From Peptococcaceae bacterium (GTDB lineage: Bacteria; Bacillota; Dehalobacteriia; UBA4068; UBA4997), in contig JAAWKH010000001.1 in the NCBI GenBank assembly GCA_022797295.1, positions 186,060 through 250,059 of the forward strand: a stretch of DNA of 64,000 nucleotides, read 5' to 3'. Below, one piece after another: positions 10,316 to 63,951 of this stretch. The notes beneath the pieces were generated by a model, which did not search any database, was not told the origin of the DNA, and saw nothing but the letters and a program-made list of their open reading frames with translations. Each line of letters begins with the position of its first letter. Positions within the stretch are counted from its first letter, which is position 1. Both the position numbers and the translations under genes were made by a program.

Positions 10316-13300
10316 TTAATCTATGCTTGATAAAATAATGTTGGTATCAGCAGCGATAGTGTATGTGTGCGAGCAACCAGCCTCCAGCATATTTGAATAG
10401 TACCAACTGTCAGGTAGATTGTCTGACCAGTTAGGCAGCTCTTGTTCGTTTATTAAATGCTCAGTACAAGATGTACGATTGAATAACAAATTAAGCAAGG
10501 TTACAGCTTCCGCGCGACTGATTGGTTGATTGGGCCTGAAGCTGCCGTCAGGATAGCCGTGTAATAAGCCGAGATCAGTTGCCTGATTAATGACATCTGC
10601 TGCCCAATGTTCTGCAATATCAGGAAAGGCTTTTGAAATTGAGCGCCCAACAGGGCTAGGTTCATCACTTGTTTGTAAATTATATATACGTATGGCAAGT
10701 GTGGCTAATTCTGCTCGTGTTAGGTAGGAGTTGGGTTTAAAACTGCCATCCTGGTAGCCTTGCAGCAAGCTGTTCTGTTTAAGAAAATCAACAGCAGTGT
10801 CATACCAATTTATTTCAGCGCTTGTTACTGTTTCAGAAGCGTTTGGATTTAGCAAACGATAAAGCATAACTGCTGCTTCTGCTCTGCTTAAATAAGCGTT
10901 TGGTCGTATGGTGCCATCACCATAACCATTAATATAAGCAAAATGTAAAAGTTGCTGATTGTTGGATGTTTGAATAGCTTCTTCTGGTTGAGATTGCGTT
11001 GGTTGTTTTTGTATGCTTCCAGAGCTACTGCTGCTAGGTCTGTTATCTGGATGGTTTTCAGGATAGCCCTCTTGCCAGACGGCATAAAGTGTGATGCTTG
11101 GCTGATTTTGACTTAATATTATTTGATTTCCTGCTTGGTAAATTGTTTCGCTGTTTGTGGGGGTTAATGCCCAACCTATGAAAGTGTAACCGTTTCGCTT
11201 TGGCTTTTCAGCCGTTATTTCAAATTGGTATTTTTCAGCTGTGCTGTAGCAAATTTGTTCCGCTGGTGTATCAAAACCGCCATTGCTATGGTAATACAGG
11301 CAATAAGCTGTTTCTAGCGGCTCTTGCAGGGGAGGTTGAGGAGTGCCAGGTTCTGGTTTTAAGTTATCGTTCAGTTGCCAAACTGCGTAGAGAGTTAGCT
11401 CTGGCGTTTCTTTATAAAGAAGAATTTGGTCTTCCGGTTGATATACTGCGTAATTAGCATTAGCTTGAGGAGCCCAGCCAATAAATTTGTAATTGTGGCG
11501 TGTTGGCTCTTCTTTGGGGATGAAAAAAGTATAGTTTTCAGTTTGAGCAGTAGCTGTTTGAGGGTAAGGCGCGTTGACGCCACCATTGCCGTTAAAGGAA
11601 AGCTTGTATTGATAAAGAGGGAGAGGTGGTGCAGGTTCGGTGCAAATTAGCTTAAAGCAAGGAAGATGTGAGTTGTTTGTTTGCCAGTTTTGTGTTGAGC
11701 TTTTATAATATAATTGTACGGTTTGCTCGTTTTCAGCCCCTAATACAAGCTTGTGCGGGCCATATGTTGTGTTGTATCGTTCAATGTAAGGTTGGGCCTG
11801 AAAGGTTAGCAAACAGCAATATCCGCTGTTGGAATAAGGCAGGCTTGGGCCAATTTGCAGGCCGTTTTGTTCCAGATTTAGGCCAATAGGATAATGCTCC
11901 GTTTGGCTGGCATTGATACATTCTAGTTGAATAGGCGTTGACGTACCTAGAATTTGCGCCAGTTCAGCATAAGTAGGCCTGGCTGGCGCGTGGCAATTTA
12001 TTATGAAAGTGCTATTATAATTGGGCGTTGTAATCCAGGCCTTGTTTTCTTCATCATAAAATAAGGTTAATAACTCCTTAGCTGATGAGTAAGTTGCTAT
12101 CAGCTTGTGGCCGTCTATTCTGGTGTTGTAATCATTCAGATAAGCGGATGGTTTGATGTTTAGGGTGGCGGTAAAATTGTTACTGTTTGTTTGATTGATG
12201 TGAAAGCTGTAGCTGTTTTCTTTAAGTGCATAGCTGAAAGTTAAATGCCCAGCCGCAGTGTTAGCACATTCAAGTTTTACGGCTTCAGATCCTAAAAGCT
12301 CTTTTAGATAGCTATAAGTGGGCTCGTCTGGCAATTTCTGCCAAACAGCGTAAAGTATGGTTTGCTTTTCAGTGGTGATTAAACTGCCGCCAGGCTGGCA
12401 AATTGCTTGTGTTGCGTTGGCCTCTAGGGCCCAACCTAAAAATTTGTAATTAATGCGTTGTGGTATTATTTCTGAAATTGTAAATAGACAATTTGTTTCT
12501 GTGCCGGAGGCGTGTTGTTCGGCAGGAGTGTTAAAACCACCGTTGACGTTGTAATAAAGTGTATATTCAATCGGTTCCGGCTCGGGCGGTTGTTCCTGTT
12601 CTTGCCAGATAGCGTAAAGTACATTTTGTTCATTTAGTGCCAGAAAAACCTCATTTGGCTGAAATTTGGCAATCAATGCGTCAGCGTCTGTATGCCAGCC
12701 TAAAAAATTCCAACCAGGGCGAACTGGTTTTGCCTCTGTTATGGTAAACACATGAAAAAAATCGAAGTCATATTCAATTTGCGGTTCGGGAGCTGTGCTG
12801 CCGCCGTTAGCGTCATATATTAATATATAGCAATGTTCAAGCGGTTGTGGATTATCCTCTTGCCAAATAGCATAGAGAGTGGTTTGCGAATTAATAGCCC
12901 AAAATTCATCGCCAGAGAGAAATTCAGCAGACAGAGCTTCTGAAGAAGTACTCCAGCCTAAAAAAATATAACCAGCTCGCACGGGTTCGTCAGAGCTGAT
13001 TGTGAATTGACAGAATATTTCTGTCGTTTGTTTGGTTTGTGTTGTAGGTGCCTGTTCGCCACCGTTAGCGTCATAAAGCAGCGTGAAGGTTTGAACCGGT
13101 AACGCTTGGTTTGATTGCCAAACTGCATAAAGAATGGTTAGGGGTGTGTTTGAAAAAAAGATTTCGCCGGGCTGATATTCAGCTTGGATGGCATTGGGAG
13201 TGGTGGCCCAGCCAACAAATGTATTATCTGCCAGATTGGGAGTTTCATAAGAAATATAAAAGATGTTGGAGGTGTTCTGTTGCAAAGCCGGTGCATTATC

Positions 13301-13450
13301 ACCGCCGTTAGCGTCATAGATTAAAAAATATTGCGGAACGATTTCTTCATTGCTTGCTGGAATAATATTGTTTGCCATAACCGGGGTGTTGAATAAAAAA
13401 ATCTGCGTTAAAATTACGCAGAGATACAAAGAGAATTTTATTTTTTTCAT
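10316..13450 (-). CDS. large secreted surface protein: signal peptide, 6 Listeria-Bacteroides-type repeats, 2 novel ~115-aa Cys-containing repeats, Pro/Ser linker, 3 C-terminal SLH domains
   Basis: N-terminal MKKIKFSLYLCVILTQIFLF signal sequence. Repeated ...LYDANGG..AP...F.GW....A....G......TLYAVWQ units. C-terminal FAYINGYGDGTIRPNAYLSRAEAAVMLYRLL-type SLH motifs x3. GGGGTG RBS. Confidence 0.8.
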   Translation of the reverse strand: MKKIKFSLYLCVILTQIFLFNTPVMANNIIPASNEEIVPQYFLIYDANGGDNAPALQQNTSNIFYISYETPNLADNTFVGWATTPNAIQAEYQPGEIFFSNTPLTILYAVWQSNQALPVQTFTLLYDANGGEQAPTTQTKQTTEIFCQFTISSDEPVRAGYIFLGWSTSSEALSAEFLSGDEFWAINSQTTLYAIWQEDNPQPLEHCYILIYDANGGSTAPEPQIEYDFDFFHVFTITEAKPVRPGWNFLGWHTDADALIAKFQPNEVFLALNEQNVLYAIWQEQEQPPEPEPIEYTLYYNVNGGFNTPAEQHASGTETNCLFTISEIIPQRINYKFLGWALEANATQAICQPGGSLITTEKQTILYAVWQKLPDEPTYSYLKELLGSEAVKLECANTAAGHLTFSYALKENSYSFHINQTNSNNFTATLNIKPSAYLNDYNTRIDGHKLIATYSSAKELLTLFYDEENKAWITTPNYNSTFIINCHAPARPTYAELAQILGTSTPIQLECINASQTEHYPIGLNLEQNGLQIGPSLPYSNSGYCCLLTFQAQPYIERYNTTYGPHKLVLGAENEQTVQLYYKSSTQNWQTNNSHLPCFKLICTEPAPPLPLYQYKLSFNGNGGVNAPYPQTATAQTENYTFFIPKEEPTRHNYKFIGWAPQANANYAVYQPEDQILLYKETPELTLYAVWQLNDNLKPEPGTPQPPLQEPLETAYCLYYHSNGGFDTPAEQICYSTAEKYQFEITAEKPKRNGYTFIGWALTPTNSETIYQAGNQIILSQNQPSITLYAVWQEGYPENHPDNRPSSSSSGSIQKQPTQSQPEEAIQTSNNQQLLHFAYINGYGDGTIRPNAYLSRAEAAVMLYRLLNPNASETVTSAEINWYDTAVDFLKQNSLLQGYQDGSFKPNSYLTRAELATLAIRIYNLQTSDEPSPVGRSISKAFPDIAEHWAADVINQATDLGLLHGYPDGSFRPNQPISRAEAVTLLNLLFNRTSCTEHLINEQELPNWSDNLPDSWYYSNMLEAGCSHTYTIAADTNIILSSID

Positions 13451-13684
13451 AGATTTCTACACCCCAAATTGTAATATATTTTCAGTGGAAAATGGTTAGT
13501 AGATTTTTAAGTTTTTGACTATTCTTTATTAAAAATCTGATATTATTGCTTATTATAATACTTTTCATTGTTTTTCGCAAGCCTTTTTTGGTATTTTTTT
13601 CCAAATGAACAGATAATTGGAATTGTATTTATAAAGTATTTTGTATTTTATAATGTTTTTGGGGCAAATCTACAAAATAAATAT

Positions 13685-13712
13685 TTACTAATTTCTAAAA
13701 AAAGTGTATAAT
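13685..13712 (+). promoter_or_regulatory. sigma-A promoter of gdhA (TTTACT-16-TATAAT, with a tandem TATAAT)
   Basis: -35 at 13685-13690 and -10 at 13707-13712 with TG immediately upstream. Confidence 0.55.
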
Positions 13713-13734
13713 TATAATCAACTAAGAGCTTTAG

Positions 13735-15099
<1,365 letters not shown>

Positions 15100-16113: not shown

Positions 16114-16187
16114 GCGGGTGTAGTTTAATGGCAGAACAAGAGCTTCCCAAGCTTTTAGCGAGGGTTCGATTCCCTTCACCCGCTCCA
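16114..16187 (+). tRNA. tRNA-Gly (anticodon CCC)
   Basis: Cloverleaf folded by eye. Acceptor stem GCGGGTG/CACCCGC, anticodon loop TTCCCAA, T-loop GGTTCGATTCC, 3' CCA encoded. Confidence 0.85.
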
Positions 16188-59827: not shown

Positions 59828-61630
59828 ATGAGCGAGTCTTTGGCAGGATTGCGCCGTACTATGATGTGCGGTGAGGTTGGATTGCCTCAAGTTGGTAGCG
59901 AGGTTGTGCTGATGGGCTGGGTGCAGCGCCGGCGCGACCATGGCGGCCTGATTTTTATTGATTTGCGCGACCGCACAGGTTTAGTGCAGATTGTTTTTGA
60001 CCCTGAAAGTGGGCCGGATGCTTTTGGCAAAGCGGAACGGGTGCGTAATGAGTACGTTTTGGCAGCAGTGGGCAAGGTGCGCCCGCGGCCGGAGGGCACG
60101 GTGAACCCCAATTTGGCAACTGGTGAAATTGAGGTTTATATCAGTGAGCTAAGAGTGCTTGCCGCTTCCGCAACGCCGCCGTTTGCTGTGGAGGACGATG
60201 TGAATGTTGACGAGTTGGTGCGTTTGCAATATCGTTATCTGGATTTGCGCCGCCCGCAAATGCAGGCTAATTTGCAGTTGCGTCACAAGGTTGCTTTTGC
60301 TATGCGCGATTACTTGAACCGCAACGGCTTTTTGGAAATTGAAACGCCGGTTTTGGGTAAGAGTACGCCGGAGGGCGCTCGTGATTATCTGGTGCCTAGC
60401 CGAGTACATCCAGGCGAGTTTTATGCTTTGCCGCAATCACCGCAGCTTTACAAGCAGCTGTTGATGGTTTCCGGTTTTGATAAATATTTTCAGATTGCTC
60501 GTTGCTTCCGGGATGAGGATTTGCGGGCAGACCGGCAGCCTGAATTTACCCAGCTGGATTTGGAAATGTCCTTTATTGATGAAGAGCAAATTCAGGGGCT
60601 TATGGAGGGCCTGGTGGCAGAGGTTTTTGATAAAGCGCTGGGAGTTAAGATTCCCACTCCTTTTAAGCGTTTGACTTGGCACGTGGCTATGGAAACCTAT
60701 GGTTCAGACAAGCCTGATTTGCGTTTTGATTTGCCGCTGATTGATGTGGCTGATTTGGTTATTGATTCCGAATTTAAGGTGTTTGCTAATGTGGCTAAAA
60801 GCGGCGGCCGAGTGAAAGGCATTAATGCCAAAGGTTGCGCTAAATATTCTCGCCGGGAGATTGACGCTTTGACGGCCTATGTGGCTATTTACGGCGCTAA
60901 AGGTTTGGCTTGGCTGAAAGTGACAGAAAACGGTTTGGAATCATCAATCAGCAAATTTTTCACTGCTGAACAATTGGAAGCTTTGTGCCAGCGTATGCAG
61001 GCGCAGCCTGGTGATTTGCTGCTGTTTGTGGCTGATAAACCGTCGGTGGTGGCGGATGCGTTGGGCCATCTGCGTTGTGAAATTGCTAAACGCGAGGGCT
61101 TGATTGACGATAAAGAATTTAACTTCTGCTGGGTGGTTGAATTCCCGCTGTTGGAATGGTCTGAGGATGAGAAACGTTACACGGCAATGCACCATCCTTT
61201 TACCTGCCCAATGCTGGAGGACGTGGAATATTTGGACAATGAGCCTGGTCGTGTGCGGGCTCGTGCCTACGATATGGTGCTAAATGGCATTGAGTTGGGC
61301 GGCGGTTCCATTCGTATTCACAGCATGGAATTGCAGGAAAAAATGCTTGAGTGCTTGGGCTTTACTAAGGAGCGGGCCCATGAAAGCTTCGGTTTCCTGT
61401 TGGACGCTTTTGGCTATGGCGTGCCGCCGCATGGTGGTATGGCTTTTGGCCTTGATCGTATGATTATGTTGATGACTGGAGCTGAAAGTATTCGTGACGT
61501 TATTGCTTTCCCCAAAACACAAAGCGCTTCATGTATGTTGACTCAGGCTCCCGGCGAGGTTACCGATAAGCAGCTTAAAGAGCTGGCAATTCGGGTTAGT
61601 ATGCAAGCAAAAGTTGAAAAGCAAAAGTAA
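59828..61630 (+). CDS. aspS: aspartate--tRNA ligase
   Basis: OB-fold anticodon-binding domain, GAD insertion and class II motifs (FRDEDLRADRQPEFTQLD). AGGAGGA RBS. Confidence 0.9.
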   Translation: MSESLAGLRRTMMCGEVGLPQVGSEVVLMGWVQRRRDHGGLIFIDLRDRTGLVQIVFDPESGPDAFGKAERVRNEYVLAAVGKVRPRPEGTVNPNLATGEIEVYISELRVLAASATPPFAVEDDVNVDELVRLQYRYLDLRRPQMQANLQLRHKVAFAMRDYLNRNGFLEIETPVLGKSTPEGARDYLVPSRVHPGEFYALPQSPQLYKQLLMVSGFDKYFQIARCFRDEDLRADRQPEFTQLDLEMSFIDEEQIQGLMEGLVAEVFDKALGVKIPTPFKRLTWHVAMETYGSDKPDLRFDLPLIDVADLVIDSEFKVFANVAKSGGRVKGINAKGCAKYSRREIDALTAYVAIYGAKGLAWLKVTENGLESSISKFFTAEQLEALCQRMQAQPGDLLLFVADKPSVVADALGHLRCEIAKREGLIDDKEFNFCWVVEFPLLEWSEDEKRYTAMHHPFTCPMLEDVEYLDNEPGRVRARAYDMVLNGIELGGGSIRIHSMELQEKMLECLGFTKERAHESFGFLLDAFGYGVPPHGGMAFGLDRMIMLMTGAESIRDVIAFPKTQSASCMLTQAPGEVTDKQLKELAIRVSMQAKVEKQK

Positions 61631-61834
61631 ACTTTCTTATGCTTGCAATTACGCAAATTTTCCTTTAGCACAGCAGAGGTGAACCGTCCAAAATGGTATG
61701 GCTGAACCCAAATGATTGTAAAAGTCAAAAATATCTTGAATTGAGGTTAAACGCGCCAAAAAAATGAAAAGATATTTCTGGAATTTAATCCTCTTAACTG
61801 GTAAAAATTTGACAAGCTAAAAGGCTAATATAAC

Positions 61835-61865
61835 AAATATCCCTCAATTTAATTGGGGGATATTT
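61835..61865 (+). terminator. 13-bp hairpin with T-rich tail ~200 nt downstream of aspS
   Basis: AAATATCCCTCAA-TTTAA-TTGGGGGATATTT. Confidence 0.45.
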
Positions 61866-61976
61866 CTGCTTACTTTATTGAAGTGAGTGCAAAGTTAGTA
61901 ATTATATGCAAGAAATGTACTATACTTCAATTTTTGAACAATGTGAACACTCTTTCACAAAGGAGATATTTTTATA

Positions 61977-62429
61977 ATGGAGAAAATAAAAGATTTTTTG
62001 GCAGCTCCAGATAAAAAACAGGATGAGTTTTGGGAAAGCGATGTCCTTGTTTGGATTGATTGGCGGGAATATGACGAATATATTATTCAATATTTTAACG
62101 AAAAATTGCCTGATGAAGATAAAATTAGCTTTGAGTGTGTAGATATAGACAAAAAAAGAGGCGTTGACATTCTTTTGAAAAAAAATGGTGTTGAAACACC
62201 AATTCCTTATGCAGACGATTTTATGGATCGGGATATTACAATAAAAAGTGTTCAGAAATATTTATATCCAAAATATCAAATTCGTTTATATATTGATTCT
62301 TCGGGTTGTGATACACTTGCTTTTTGTATTTATCCAACTGAGCAATGGAATCAGCTGGAGCAGGAATTTGGTGCAGAAAAGGTCGCTTCTTATTTTCAGC
62401 CGATAAAGGCGAATAGTAAAATGTTTTAA
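61977..62429 (+). CDS. hypothetical protein encoded in an AT-rich islet (orphan, possibly horizontally acquired)
   Basis: AAAGGAGA RBS. Composition clearly more AT-rich than the flanking housekeeping genes. No domain recognised. Confidence 0.5.
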   Translation: MEKIKDFLAAPDKKQDEFWESDVLVWIDWREYDEYIIQYFNEKLPDEDKISFECVDIDKKRGVDILLKKNGVETPIPYADDFMDRDITIKSVQKYLYPKYQIRLYIDSSGCDTLAFCIYPTEQWNQLEQEFGAEKVASYFQPIKANSKMF

Positions 62430-62572
62430 ATAAATATAGTTTTATGTTGCATTATTTGTTTGTTTTGTTGTTATAACTATATTTTTTAAGTTTTATATAT
62501 CAATAGTCCAAAATAAATTGTTTATTCTTGTTTGTTTTGAAAAAAAGCGAATAATTGGCCTAAAATTTTTAT

Positions 62573-62827
62573 TGATATTTTCAAATATTGGTGCTATAAT
62601 GTTAGCAATAGCGGAATATAATATACTTGCCCGACAGTGTGCGAAGAGATGCTGATAAGTTTTGAGCCAACACTCAAAATATGGGATTCTTATATTTGTC
62701 TGTGGACTTAATGCCTCCATCGAGTGGACTAAGGAAGCAGCTTGCGGAAGCCCACCTGCATATGCAGGTTCAAAACATCGGCGTTGGACCGGCATTGTGG
62801 GGCATTTTTTTATTAGGAGGGGATTTT
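62573..62827 (+). promoter_or_regulatory. sigma-A promoter (TTGATA-16-TGcTATAAT) plus ~220-nt structured leader upstream of pyrF
   Basis: -35 at 62573-62578 and -10 at 62595-62600. The leader contains the palindrome CCTGCATATGCAGG (62755-62768) and a T7 run (62805-62811) directly before RBS AGGAGGGG. Confidence 0.5.
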
Positions 62828-63562
62828 GTGGCTTTAACACAACAAGAGGCTAAGGAAAAAATAATTGTGGCATTGGATGTGCCAAACCGAGAGCAGGCCT
62901 TACAGCTGGTGGAGCAGCTTTATGATGAAGTTGGCGCTTTCAAAATTGGTATGCAGTTATATAATGCTGAGGGGCCAAGTATTGTGAAGGAAATTCAGCG
63001 GCTTGGCGGCAAGGTGTTTATTGATTTGAAGCTGCATGACATACCAAACACTGTGGCCGAGGCTACCAAAGTGTTGACTAATTTGCAGGCTTTTATTATG
63101 ACTCTGCACGCAGGCGGCGGCAAAAAAATGCTGGCTGCGGCTGCCAAAGCGGTGGCGGAAAGTGTGCCGGAAAATGGCTGCAAACCGTTGGTGGTTGCGG
63201 TGACAGTTTTAACCAGTTTGAGTCAGCAGGAATTTACAGAAGAAATTGGTGTTGAGCGGTCGATTGCTGAACAGGTGGTTATTTGGGCAAAAATGGCCAA
63301 AGAAGCAGGTTTAGCTGGCGTTGTGGCTTCGCCGCAGGAAATTGAGGTTATCCGTCAGGCTTGCGGACCAGATTTTGTGATTATTACGCCGGGAATTAGG
63401 CCGCTTTGGGCCGCGGCAAATGACCAAAGCCGGATTATGACGCCAAAGCAGGCTGTGCAGGCAGGCGCAAATTACTTGGTGATTGGCCGGCCAATTACGG
63501 CGGATAAGGAGCCAAAGGCTGCTGCACGCCGTATTGTTGAGGAAATTATGGAGGTTCATTAA
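62828..63562 (+). CDS. pyrF: orotidine 5'-phosphate decarboxylase
   Basis: KIIVALDV, FKIGMQL, LKLHDIPNTV and VIGRPIT motifs. The in-frame ORF 62681 is trimmed to GTG 62828, 5 nt after AGGAGGGG. Confidence 0.85.
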   Translation: MALTQQEAKEKIIVALDVPNREQALQLVEQLYDEVGAFKIGMQLYNAEGPSIVKEIQRLGGKVFIDLKLHDIPNTVAEATKVLTNLQAFIMTLHAGGGKKMLAAAAKAVAESVPENGCKPLVVAVTVLTSLSQQEFTEEIGVERSIAEQVVIWAKMAKEAGLAGVVASPQEIEVIRQACGPDFVIITPGIRPLWAAANDQSRIMTPKQAVQAGANYLVIGRPITADKEPKAAARRIVEEIMEVH

Positions 63563-63564
63563 GC

Positions 63565-63951
63565 TTGAGCGATAAACAACAACTTTTATACTGTGCGGAC
63601 AAGGCCTTGTGTAGCTTGCAAAAAGCGCAAAAGAAATTATATAGCGCTCATAATATGGGTGTGTTTGATATTTGGGGAGGCGGTTTGCTGACCAGTATGG
63701 CTAAGCACGGTGATTTGAACGAAGCCAACTATTATCTGAAAGAAGCCAAACAAGATTTGGAAGTTTTGAAGGATCAGATGGGTGGGGTTGATTTGCAGAT
63801 TGATTTAGGCAGTGGATTGGAAGCTATTGATATTTGGCTTGACAACATATTTATAGATTTGACGGTTCAGGATAAAATCTGCGCTGCTCAGACGCAGGTT
63901 CATCAGGCTATTTCTCAGTTGCAAAGTATTATTGCAAAGCTTAAAGATTAG
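63565..63951 (+). CDS. hypothetical helical protein (128 aa)
   Basis: TTG start 10 nt after GGAGG. No domain recognised with confidence. Confidence 0.45.
   Translation: MSDKQQLLYCADKALCSLQKAQKKLYSAHNMGVFDIWGGGLLTSMAKHGDLNEANYYLKEAKQDLEVLKDQMGGVDLQIDLGSGLEAIDIWLDNIFIDLTVQDKICAAQTQVHQAISQLQSIIAKLKD

Follow-up and report, generated by a model that had tools for sequence, protein, structure and literature searches.

A lineage-specific gene in the AT-rich spacer between aspS and the 6S RNA gene of a Peptococcaceae bacterium and its possible role as a standalone immunity protein

The window analyzed here is a stretch of 64,000 nucleotides from a Peptococcaceae bacterium (assembly GCA_022797295.1, contig JAAWKH010000001.1, positions 186,060 to 250,059 of the forward strand), and the subject of this report is an AT-rich islet that lies between aspS and a 6S RNA gene and carries a single protein-coding gene, an open reading frame (ORF) of 150 amino acids termed ORF150. 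The features of the locus are collected in Table 1. Measured in 300-nt windows, the guanine-plus-cytosine (GC) content is 26-33% over approximately 61600-62700, compared with 45-55% in the flanks, and the 900-nt stretch with the lowest GC content in the whole window is 61701-62600 (0.289, against a mean of 0.457 and a standard deviation of 0.038; z = -4.4). ORF150 also has the lowest GC content at third codon positions (GC3) among the 49 ORFs of at least 150 aa, with a value of 0.253 compared with 0.471 +/- 0.058 (z = -3.8). Both measures bear out the initial annotation of the window, which had described an AT-rich islet and which was also correct in placing the end of a housekeeping run (rel-dtd-hisS-aspS, which also contains a metallo-beta-lactamase (MBL)-fold gene between dtd and hisS) at 61630, in calling a 150-aa gene downstream, which is indeed preceded by an AAAGGAG ribosome-binding site, and in marking a hairpin 5' of this gene, which is real. 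Its statement that the islet holds the only gene between aspS and pyrF does not stand, as the 6S RNA gene had been overlooked, and both its right-hand border at 62680 and the ATG at 62681 that it took as the pyrF start fall inside the 6S gene. The islet proper comprises 61631..62568, about 0.94 kb, with the homology to relatives resuming at the -35 box of the 6S promoter; in the comparison with the related loci L015 and L016 the homology of the window picks up again at 62569-62571. The 5' spacer of the islet has no blastn or tblastn match to the related loci L014, L015 and L016 or to the neighbors of homologs and no Rfam match at E <= 1, and the fold of 61631-61700 is no more stable than that of shuffled sequences. 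On the 3' side the GC content is 0.20 for the entire intergenic stretch 62430-62625, which includes a weak A/T hairpin with a T-run at 62429-62487 (inverted repeat I4; folding free energy (dG) -11.2, z = -2.2) that may be the terminator of ORF150. Elsewhere in the window, the second-lowest-GC stretch is 12901-13800 (0.342), and the second-lowest GC3 belongs to a 1044-aa ORF on the minus strand (10316..13450) that contains a region of S-layer homology (PDB Sap, E = 2.8e-13).

Table 1. Positions of the features at the aspS-pyrF locus, in window coordinates
Feature	Position	Strand	Description and basis
aspS (aspartyl-tRNA synthetase)	59828..61630	+	Left anchor; Pfam tRNA-synt_2 (9.4e-126), GAD, tRNA_anti-codon
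5' spacer of islet	61631..61834		Lineage-specific, ~31% GC; no recognizable feature
Hairpin	61835..61865	+	14-bp stem, 3-nt loop, weak T-rich tail
Ribosome-binding site of ORF150	61959..61965	+	AAAGGAG, 11 nt ahead of ATG; direct sequence reading
ORF150	61977..62429	+	150 aa, 17.9 kDa, acidic cytoplasmic alpha/beta protein
3' spacer	62430..62568		Very AT-rich, end of variable region
6S promoter	62572..62600	+	TTGATA-17-TGcTATAAT (TG-extended); conserved in relatives
6S RNA gene (ssrS/bsrA type)	62626..62807	+	True right-hand neighbor of the islet; Rfam RF00013
pyrF (orotidine 5'-monophosphate decarboxylase)	62828..63562	+	GTG start, AGGAGG site; Pfam OMPdecase 1.8e-60

Relatives were collected by a scan with the aspartyl-tRNA synthetase (AspRS), one genome per species, which resulted in 11 loci from metagenome-assembled genomes (MAGs) labeled Bacillota, Peptococcaceae, Clostridia or Syntrophomonadaceae. 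The nearest gene-free relative whose contig reaches the site (L015, AspRS identity 91%) has a 92-nt spacer with a GC-rich terminator, after which homology to the window restarts at the -35 box of the 6S promoter. The spacer between aspS and the 6S gene is about 150 nt in L017, L018 and L021 (AspRS identity 62-65%), and in L017 and L018 pyrF follows directly after the 6S gene. Three further relatives carry unrelated cargo in the same position, namely a 173-aa ferritin-like gene in L016 (AspRS 88%; L016:3926-4447; Pfam Ferritin, 1.9e-28), a 260-aa nucleotidyltransferase gene in L020 (AspRS 63%; L020:4094-4876; NTP_transf_2) and 4.2 kb of sequence, including a pyrrolysine insertion (PYLIS) element, in L022 (AspRS 56%; L022:6735-11000). 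The direct adjacency of aspS and pyrF that the initial annotation had proposed looking for is thus not what relatives show; their order is aspS, 6S RNA, pyrF. Because this order comes with either a short spacer or unrelated cargo in the same slot, the islet appears to be a lineage-specific acquisition, a conclusion that is much firmer than the functional reading of ORF150 discussed below. From the same comparison, the ancestral arrangement is taken to be aspS, a spacer of 90-150 nt with a terminator, the 6S gene with its own promoter, and pyrF. The unrelated cargo in L016, L020 and L022 indicates that the aspS-6S spacer behaves as a recurrent accessory-gene slot, apparently with turnover of single genes. 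A small horizontally acquired insertion, as first suggested for the islet, is therefore supported by the empty site of L015, the other cargo in L016 and L020, and the deviant composition.

The islet differs from a classical genomic island or integrative element in that no recombinase ORF is present in 61631-62568, no att site is seen, and the only direct or inverted repeats that could mark the insertion ends are short and at chance level; no tRNA gene lies near it, the sole tRNA of the window being at 16114. It does share two other marks of genomic islands, as its composition is deviant and close relatives lack it at the syntenic site. No remnant of any homolog's neighbor was found in the islet, and no second ORF150-like copy was found within the window. 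The sister MAG L014 (AspRS identity 97.5%) has a 167-aa homolog of ORF150 (77% amino acid and 83% nucleotide identity) after the same hairpin, with a different downstream neighbor. This hairpin has 15-nt arms that are 93% complementary and a dG of -17.5 kcal/mol (z = -4.4; 0/200 shuffles fold as well), and it is the sole intergenic piece conserved in L014 (L014 6867-6900, 88% identity). It is probably a leaky aspS terminator that also forms the 5' edge of the acquired cassette. The hairpin was rejected as a family-wide cassette signal, as it is present only in the window lineage and L014 and not upstream of other homologs.

The synonymous divergence (dS) between the window and L014 is 0.60 for ORF150, similar to the values for aspS (0.72) and hisS (0.90), which indicates that the gene was present in the common ancestor with L014 and has been inherited vertically since the split. 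The ratio of nonsynonymous to synonymous divergence (dN/dS) is 0.205 for ORF150 compared with 0.02-0.05 for the synthetases, which indicates purifying but relaxed selection. An AspRS identical to that of the window (NCBI MCI9044039.1, Peptococcaceae bacterium MAG) is encoded on 23 contigs that were read, all of which have the order aspS-ORF150-pyrF-ORF128, and the identical ORF150 protein was found on 340 contigs. A recent insertion event is unsupported, given the match in dS to aspS and hisS and the presence of the gene in all 23 contigs. These same two observations, the sharing of the gene with L014 and the evident proneness of the slot to turnover would also fit a gene that was ancestral at the site and was lost or replaced in relatives. 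Differential loss of this kind is improbable, however, as 5/5 more distant relatives that span the site are without the gene, three of them with the minimal 150-nt spacer, the GC3 of ORF150 is still 0.25 compared with the genome-typical 0.47, and other gut Firmicutes carry close homologs (65-72% identity) in unrelated genomic surroundings, indicating horizontal spread. Acquisition also agrees with the wider distribution of the family, as homologs occupy many unrelated positions and, in most of the eight host contexts that were compared, are lower in GC than the sequence on either side, which is consistent with horizontal spread; in L031-33, for example, a homolog and a small resolvase gene are inserted between rplI and dnaB. 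A tblastn search with ORF150 against plasmid and phage collections gave no match, and thus nothing indicates that a plasmid or phage carries the gene. A functional link of ORF150 to 6S RNA or aspS was considered and rejected, because relatives keep the aspS-6S-pyrF order without the gene and homologs are found in unrelated contexts. One short metagenome contig (L040:1-1546) combines a homolog 5' half and an upstream gene from another clade, the latter presumably encoding isopropylmalate dehydrogenase as judged by eye from its sequence, with a homolog 3' half and AT-rich 3' flank that hardly differ from the window. The contig probably represents an assembly chimera or a natural recombinant, and was therefore not taken to be an informative variant.

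ORF150 has a pI of 4.55 and contains no transmembrane or hydrophobic segment. The initial annotation had reported that its product matches nothing recognizable, but a word-indexed search found 116 homologs at 45-100% identity, and an exhaustive profile search found 523 clusters (50% identity) at E <= 1e-3, 225 of them at E <= 1e-10. Nearly all homologs come from metagenomes, with a few from Paenibacillus and a Carnobacteriaceae genome. The positions conserved in the family are W26, D28, W29, R30, R61, D64, R85, D86, Q101, R103 and D112-T-L-A, which form the motifs WxDWRE, DRD, QIR and DTLAF. AlphaFold2, run with the family alignment, predicts an alpha/beta fold with high confidence (pLDDT 96.3, pTM 0.90), for which no fold match was found in PDB or BFVD, nor does the sequence match any PDB entry. 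Scans of Pfam, NCBIfam and PADLOC assign ORF150 to no family, PHROGs gives only a partial weak match to phrog_9800 (function unknown; 1.5e-6, residues 97-143), and neither a catalytic fold nor a motif for cofactor binding was recognized. The closest candidate in Pfam is DUF6630 (PF20335), itself uncharacterized, which matches faintly near the N-terminal WxDWRE with a best E value of 1.2e-4 in 4/94 family members; membership was rejected on score (12.7 bits compared with a gathering threshold of 27, and no match of the window protein at E <= 1), and DUF6630 is at most a remote relative. Many distant members, including P0159, P0161, P0175, P0189 and P0155 (305-449 aa), contain, singly or in duplicate, an unnamed N-terminal domain of ~140 aa that belongs to no Pfam family and is recognized by EELF.Y..L, PPHI.W, a VEYRY-type strand and LP.SL.

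Most close homologs of ORF150 are 167 aa long and have an extra C-terminal helix of 17 residues (EMDMxEVFxLLExRGE). The lack of this helix, together with the missing consensus promoter directly upstream, could be explained if ORF150 were a decaying, C-terminally truncated and functionless remnant. We regard this as very improbable, as the dN/dS of 0.2 and the identical sequence on 340 contigs speak against decay, and the 150 residues alone give the confident predicted fold. In addition, residue ~150 is also where many distant members and every fusion protein end, and the 150-aa protein of the window is therefore a complete core domain. The public record for the identical protein (MCI9044040.1) carries the name "glutathione reductase [Peptococcaceae bacterium]", and the Paenibacillus homolog P0105 has the same name in UniRef. 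Genuine glutathione reductases are FAD/NADPH enzymes of ~450 aa. ORF150, at 150 aa, has no pyridine-nucleotide-disulfide oxidoreductase domain or any other Pfam or NCBIfam domain and no sequence or fold match in PDB, so this identity is refuted on sequence grounds and its probability is negligible; the name looks like a propagated misannotation.

The function of ORF150 was approached through the neighborhoods of its homologs, to which a metagenome scan added 80 loci whose genes were called and clustered anew. Heterogeneous polyimmunity loci and proteins have been defined by co-orientation, strain variability, adjoining recombinases and immunity domains fused with TPR repeats (Zhang et al. 2012, PMC3482391), and features matching this definition are seen around the homologs, which points to an immunity function. 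The homolog in L002-5 is part of an array with SUFU, Colicin_Pyocin immunity, a SUKH-like gene and YfbO, that in L011-12 lies near SUFU-DUF7832, Imm33-TPR and Fic, and that in L028 is found with a SUFU-Imm33-TPR protein and DUF4261. A weak Imm17 match lies immediately upstream of the homolog in L025-27, where a 1481-aa SUKH-SUFU-DUF4253 protein, DUF4274 and UPF0167 are also present beside a serine recombinase. At 16 or more gut loci (at least 16) the homolog is located 1-3 genes 3' of a protein of ~1,300-2,200 aa, and the giant protein that was scanned (1864 aa, L075) has the domain order Imm68-Imm33-DUF4261-SUFU-DUF7832-DUF4253. These giant proteins are followed by co-oriented DUF4274, UPF0167, SnoaL-like or DUF4304 genes whose order is shuffled between loci, and other neighbors of homologs include DUF7832-DUF4253, SMI1_KNR4 and DUF4261 proteins. 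SUFU (5), DUF4253 (5), DUF7832 (4), DUF4261 (4), SMI1_KNR4 (4) and SUKH_6 (3) were the six most frequent Pfam families in a census of 150 dereplicated neighbor clusters within 4 kb, in which Imm68, Imm33, DUF4241 and SUKH_5 were also recurrent. The family further includes fusions to TPR and Sel1 repeats (P0304, P0237, P0308 and P0310).

Several observations weigh against an immunity function. The census counts stand without a background rate of immunity genes in those genomes, many of the immunity-rich loci come from related human-gut organisms and are not fully independent, and immunity neighbors are missing from about half of the independent contexts, the window among them. The copies in the window, L006, L010 and L035 are solitary, and a DUF4241 gene is all that accompanies the Carnobacteriaceae copy (L037/L038). 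No toxin gene was found beside the window copy, whose upstream neighbor is aspS, or beside any homolog examined, as judged from the neighbors scanned and the top 25 census families listed. A scan of 38 multidomain relatives showed no fusion to a recognized Imm, SUKH or SUFU domain, the partners being Sel1, DUF805 and the unnamed N-terminal domain (elsewhere TPR and a partial NADAR), and no ORF150-like domain was found inside the giant polyimmunity proteins. The residues D28, R103 and D112 are nearly invariant across very distant members, as would equally be expected of an enzyme or of a protein that binds a ligand. A toxin-unrelated cellular role for the family, as a small enzyme, ligand-binding or stress protein that accumulates in variable "grab-bag" regions, would accommodate the persistence of these D/R/D and W residues in members of only 25-35% identity, the lack of recognized immunity genes near the copies in the window, L006, L010, L031 and L035, the missing toxin neighbors and Imm fusions, and the one fusion or adjacent partner that is a NADAR fragment, an ADP-ribose-processing enzyme domain. 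We nevertheless consider such a role rather unlikely, as the commonest neighbor families are all of immunity type, the homologs are embedded within co-oriented arrays and not merely close to them, and neither a catalytic fold nor a cofactor-binding motif was found.

On balance we lean towards a single-gene acquisition in the aspS-6S spacer, with ORF150 most likely a standalone ("orphan") immunity protein against polymorphic toxins, as suggested by context. The immunity reading of the protein taken alone is an evenly balanced call. Of the two labels given earlier, an immunity-like or stress orphan, the immunity-like part is plausible from the context of the homologs, and the orphan part does not hold for a member of a large conserved family. 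Somewhat more tentative is the broader proposal that the family represents an undescribed superfamily of polymorphic-toxin immunity proteins, with a fold that has no solved relative, and that the aspS-6S spacer of these Peptococcaceae is a recurrent landing slot for single accessory genes; the candidate superfamily is widespread, with >500 clusters (50% identity), and its members are found in varied genomic settings, among them Paenibacillus, Carnobacteriaceae and contigs from human-gut metagenomes. In the mechanism proposed, an AT-rich cassette consisting of the hairpin and one gene was inserted into the permissive stretch that separates the terminator of aspS from the promoter of the 6S gene, in the ancestor of the window organism and L014, and has afterwards been inherited vertically under purifying selection. 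Because no good consensus promoter was found directly upstream of ORF150, transcription would proceed by read-through from aspS past the weak hairpin, with the transcript presumably ending at the A/T hairpin and T-run at 62429-62487. The cytoplasmic protein would then bind and neutralize the incoming C-terminal toxin domain delivered by competitors, probably by stoichiometric binding, and would thus protect the cell pre-emptively, with no gene for the cognate toxin in cis. Supernumerary SUKH genes have been suggested to play a pre-emptive, toxin-less immunity role of this type (Zhang, Iyer and Aravind 2011, PMC3113570).

The immunity proteins of polyimmunity loci (SUKH, SuFu, Imm33 and Imm66-69; PMC3113570, PMC3482391) resemble ORF150 as a small standalone cytoplasmic alpha+beta domain. 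The ORF150 family shares with them the co-oriented, strain-variable arrays containing SUFU, SUKH, Imm33, Imm68 and DUF4253/4261/4274, which adjoin giant polyimmunity proteins and sometimes recombinases, as well as the TPR/Sel1 fusions and the isolated "supernumerary" copies. In contrast to these proteins, ORF150 matches no Pfam Imm, SUKH or SuFu model, and neither a fusion to an immunity domain nor a cognate toxin is seen. The heterogeneous immunity arrays are also found around homologs and not around the window copy, which stands solitary between housekeeping genes. A second comparison is provided by the orphan immunity or acquired interbacterial defense genes of gut bacteria (PMC12247911). 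These genes are likewise toxin-free in cis, horizontally acquired, gut-associated and maintained in populations; the work cited concerns type VI secretion system effectors exchanged between Gram-negative bacteria, whereas the host of ORF150 is a Gram-positive-type Bacillota MAG and ORF150 is a single cassette without mobile-element genes, with a function deduced from context.

As a phenomenon, a single acquired defense-type gene in a permissive intergenic slot is ordinary and the biology is unsurprising. The family itself, sizeable and absent from the curated libraries searched, has a confidently predicted fold without a solved relative and is a candidate new immunity family of polymorphic toxin systems in gut Firmicutes. 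If this is true, interbacterial antagonism in microbiomes could be profiled with one more marker, and a new toxin-recognition scaffold would be at hand. A conserved partner gene was rejected, as the homologs in L002 and L011 are each preceded by a 114-aa gene but the two genes are mutually unrelated. The giant proteins of human-gut Firmicutes noted near homologs are 1,481-2,231 aa long (L075:2153-7747, L043:1827-8522, L050:2174-7474 and L026:10729-15174); the two annotated are those of L075 and L026, the latter with SMI1_KNR4, SUKH_6, SUFU, DUF7832 and DUF4253 domains. Several of the shuffled small genes that follow them have no family assignment (clusters 4, 8, 11, 14 and 31) and are candidates for further undescribed immunity families.

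Three corrections to the annotation follow from the locus, namely the overlooked 6S RNA gene, an over-extended pyrF start and the unfounded "glutathione reductase" name. The identity of the 6S gene, assigned from its Rfam match, is much firmer than the immunity reading of ORF150. It scores 87.3 bits against RF00013 compared with a gathering score of 46.4 (E = 7.5e-17) and covers model positions 1-187 of 187. Its promoter is the best promoter-like site of the region, with 11/12 matches plus the TG, and aligns with L016 4499-4530 and L015 6895-6925; promoter and gene together are 85% identical to L016. A 6S gene is also located 3' of aspS in L016, L017, L018, L020, L021 and L022. That a 6S gene follows aspS is an arrangement of long standing in Firmicutes, according to a 2002 report (pmid 12177353, as cited in PMC10578484 and PMC3299989). 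The window agrees with it in having a 6S gene with its own sigma-A-type promoter 3' of hisS-aspS, in a synteny that is kept in the relatives examined, and differs in that an acquired gene parts aspS from the 6S gene and in that the gene after 6S is pyrF and not yrvM.

The pyrF start at GTG 62828 aligns with the ATG start of the L016 ortholog, and counted from this codon the OMPdecase domain begins at residue 11. Public gene calls over-extend pyrF into the 6S gene, giving proteins of 288-293 aa instead of 244. The start lies 20 nt past the T-run of the 6S gene, with the pyrF ribosome-binding site immediately after the T-run, and the 6S-pyrF pairing is kept in L016, L017 and L018. Given this conserved pairing, read-through from the strong promoter of the 6S gene may account for part of the pyrF expression. 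Right after pyrF, and overlapping its stop region, lies a 128-aa ORF on the same strand (ORF128, 63565..63951), which has no Pfam, NCBIfam, PADLOC or PDB match and is conserved in the same-species contigs L001, L039 and L119.

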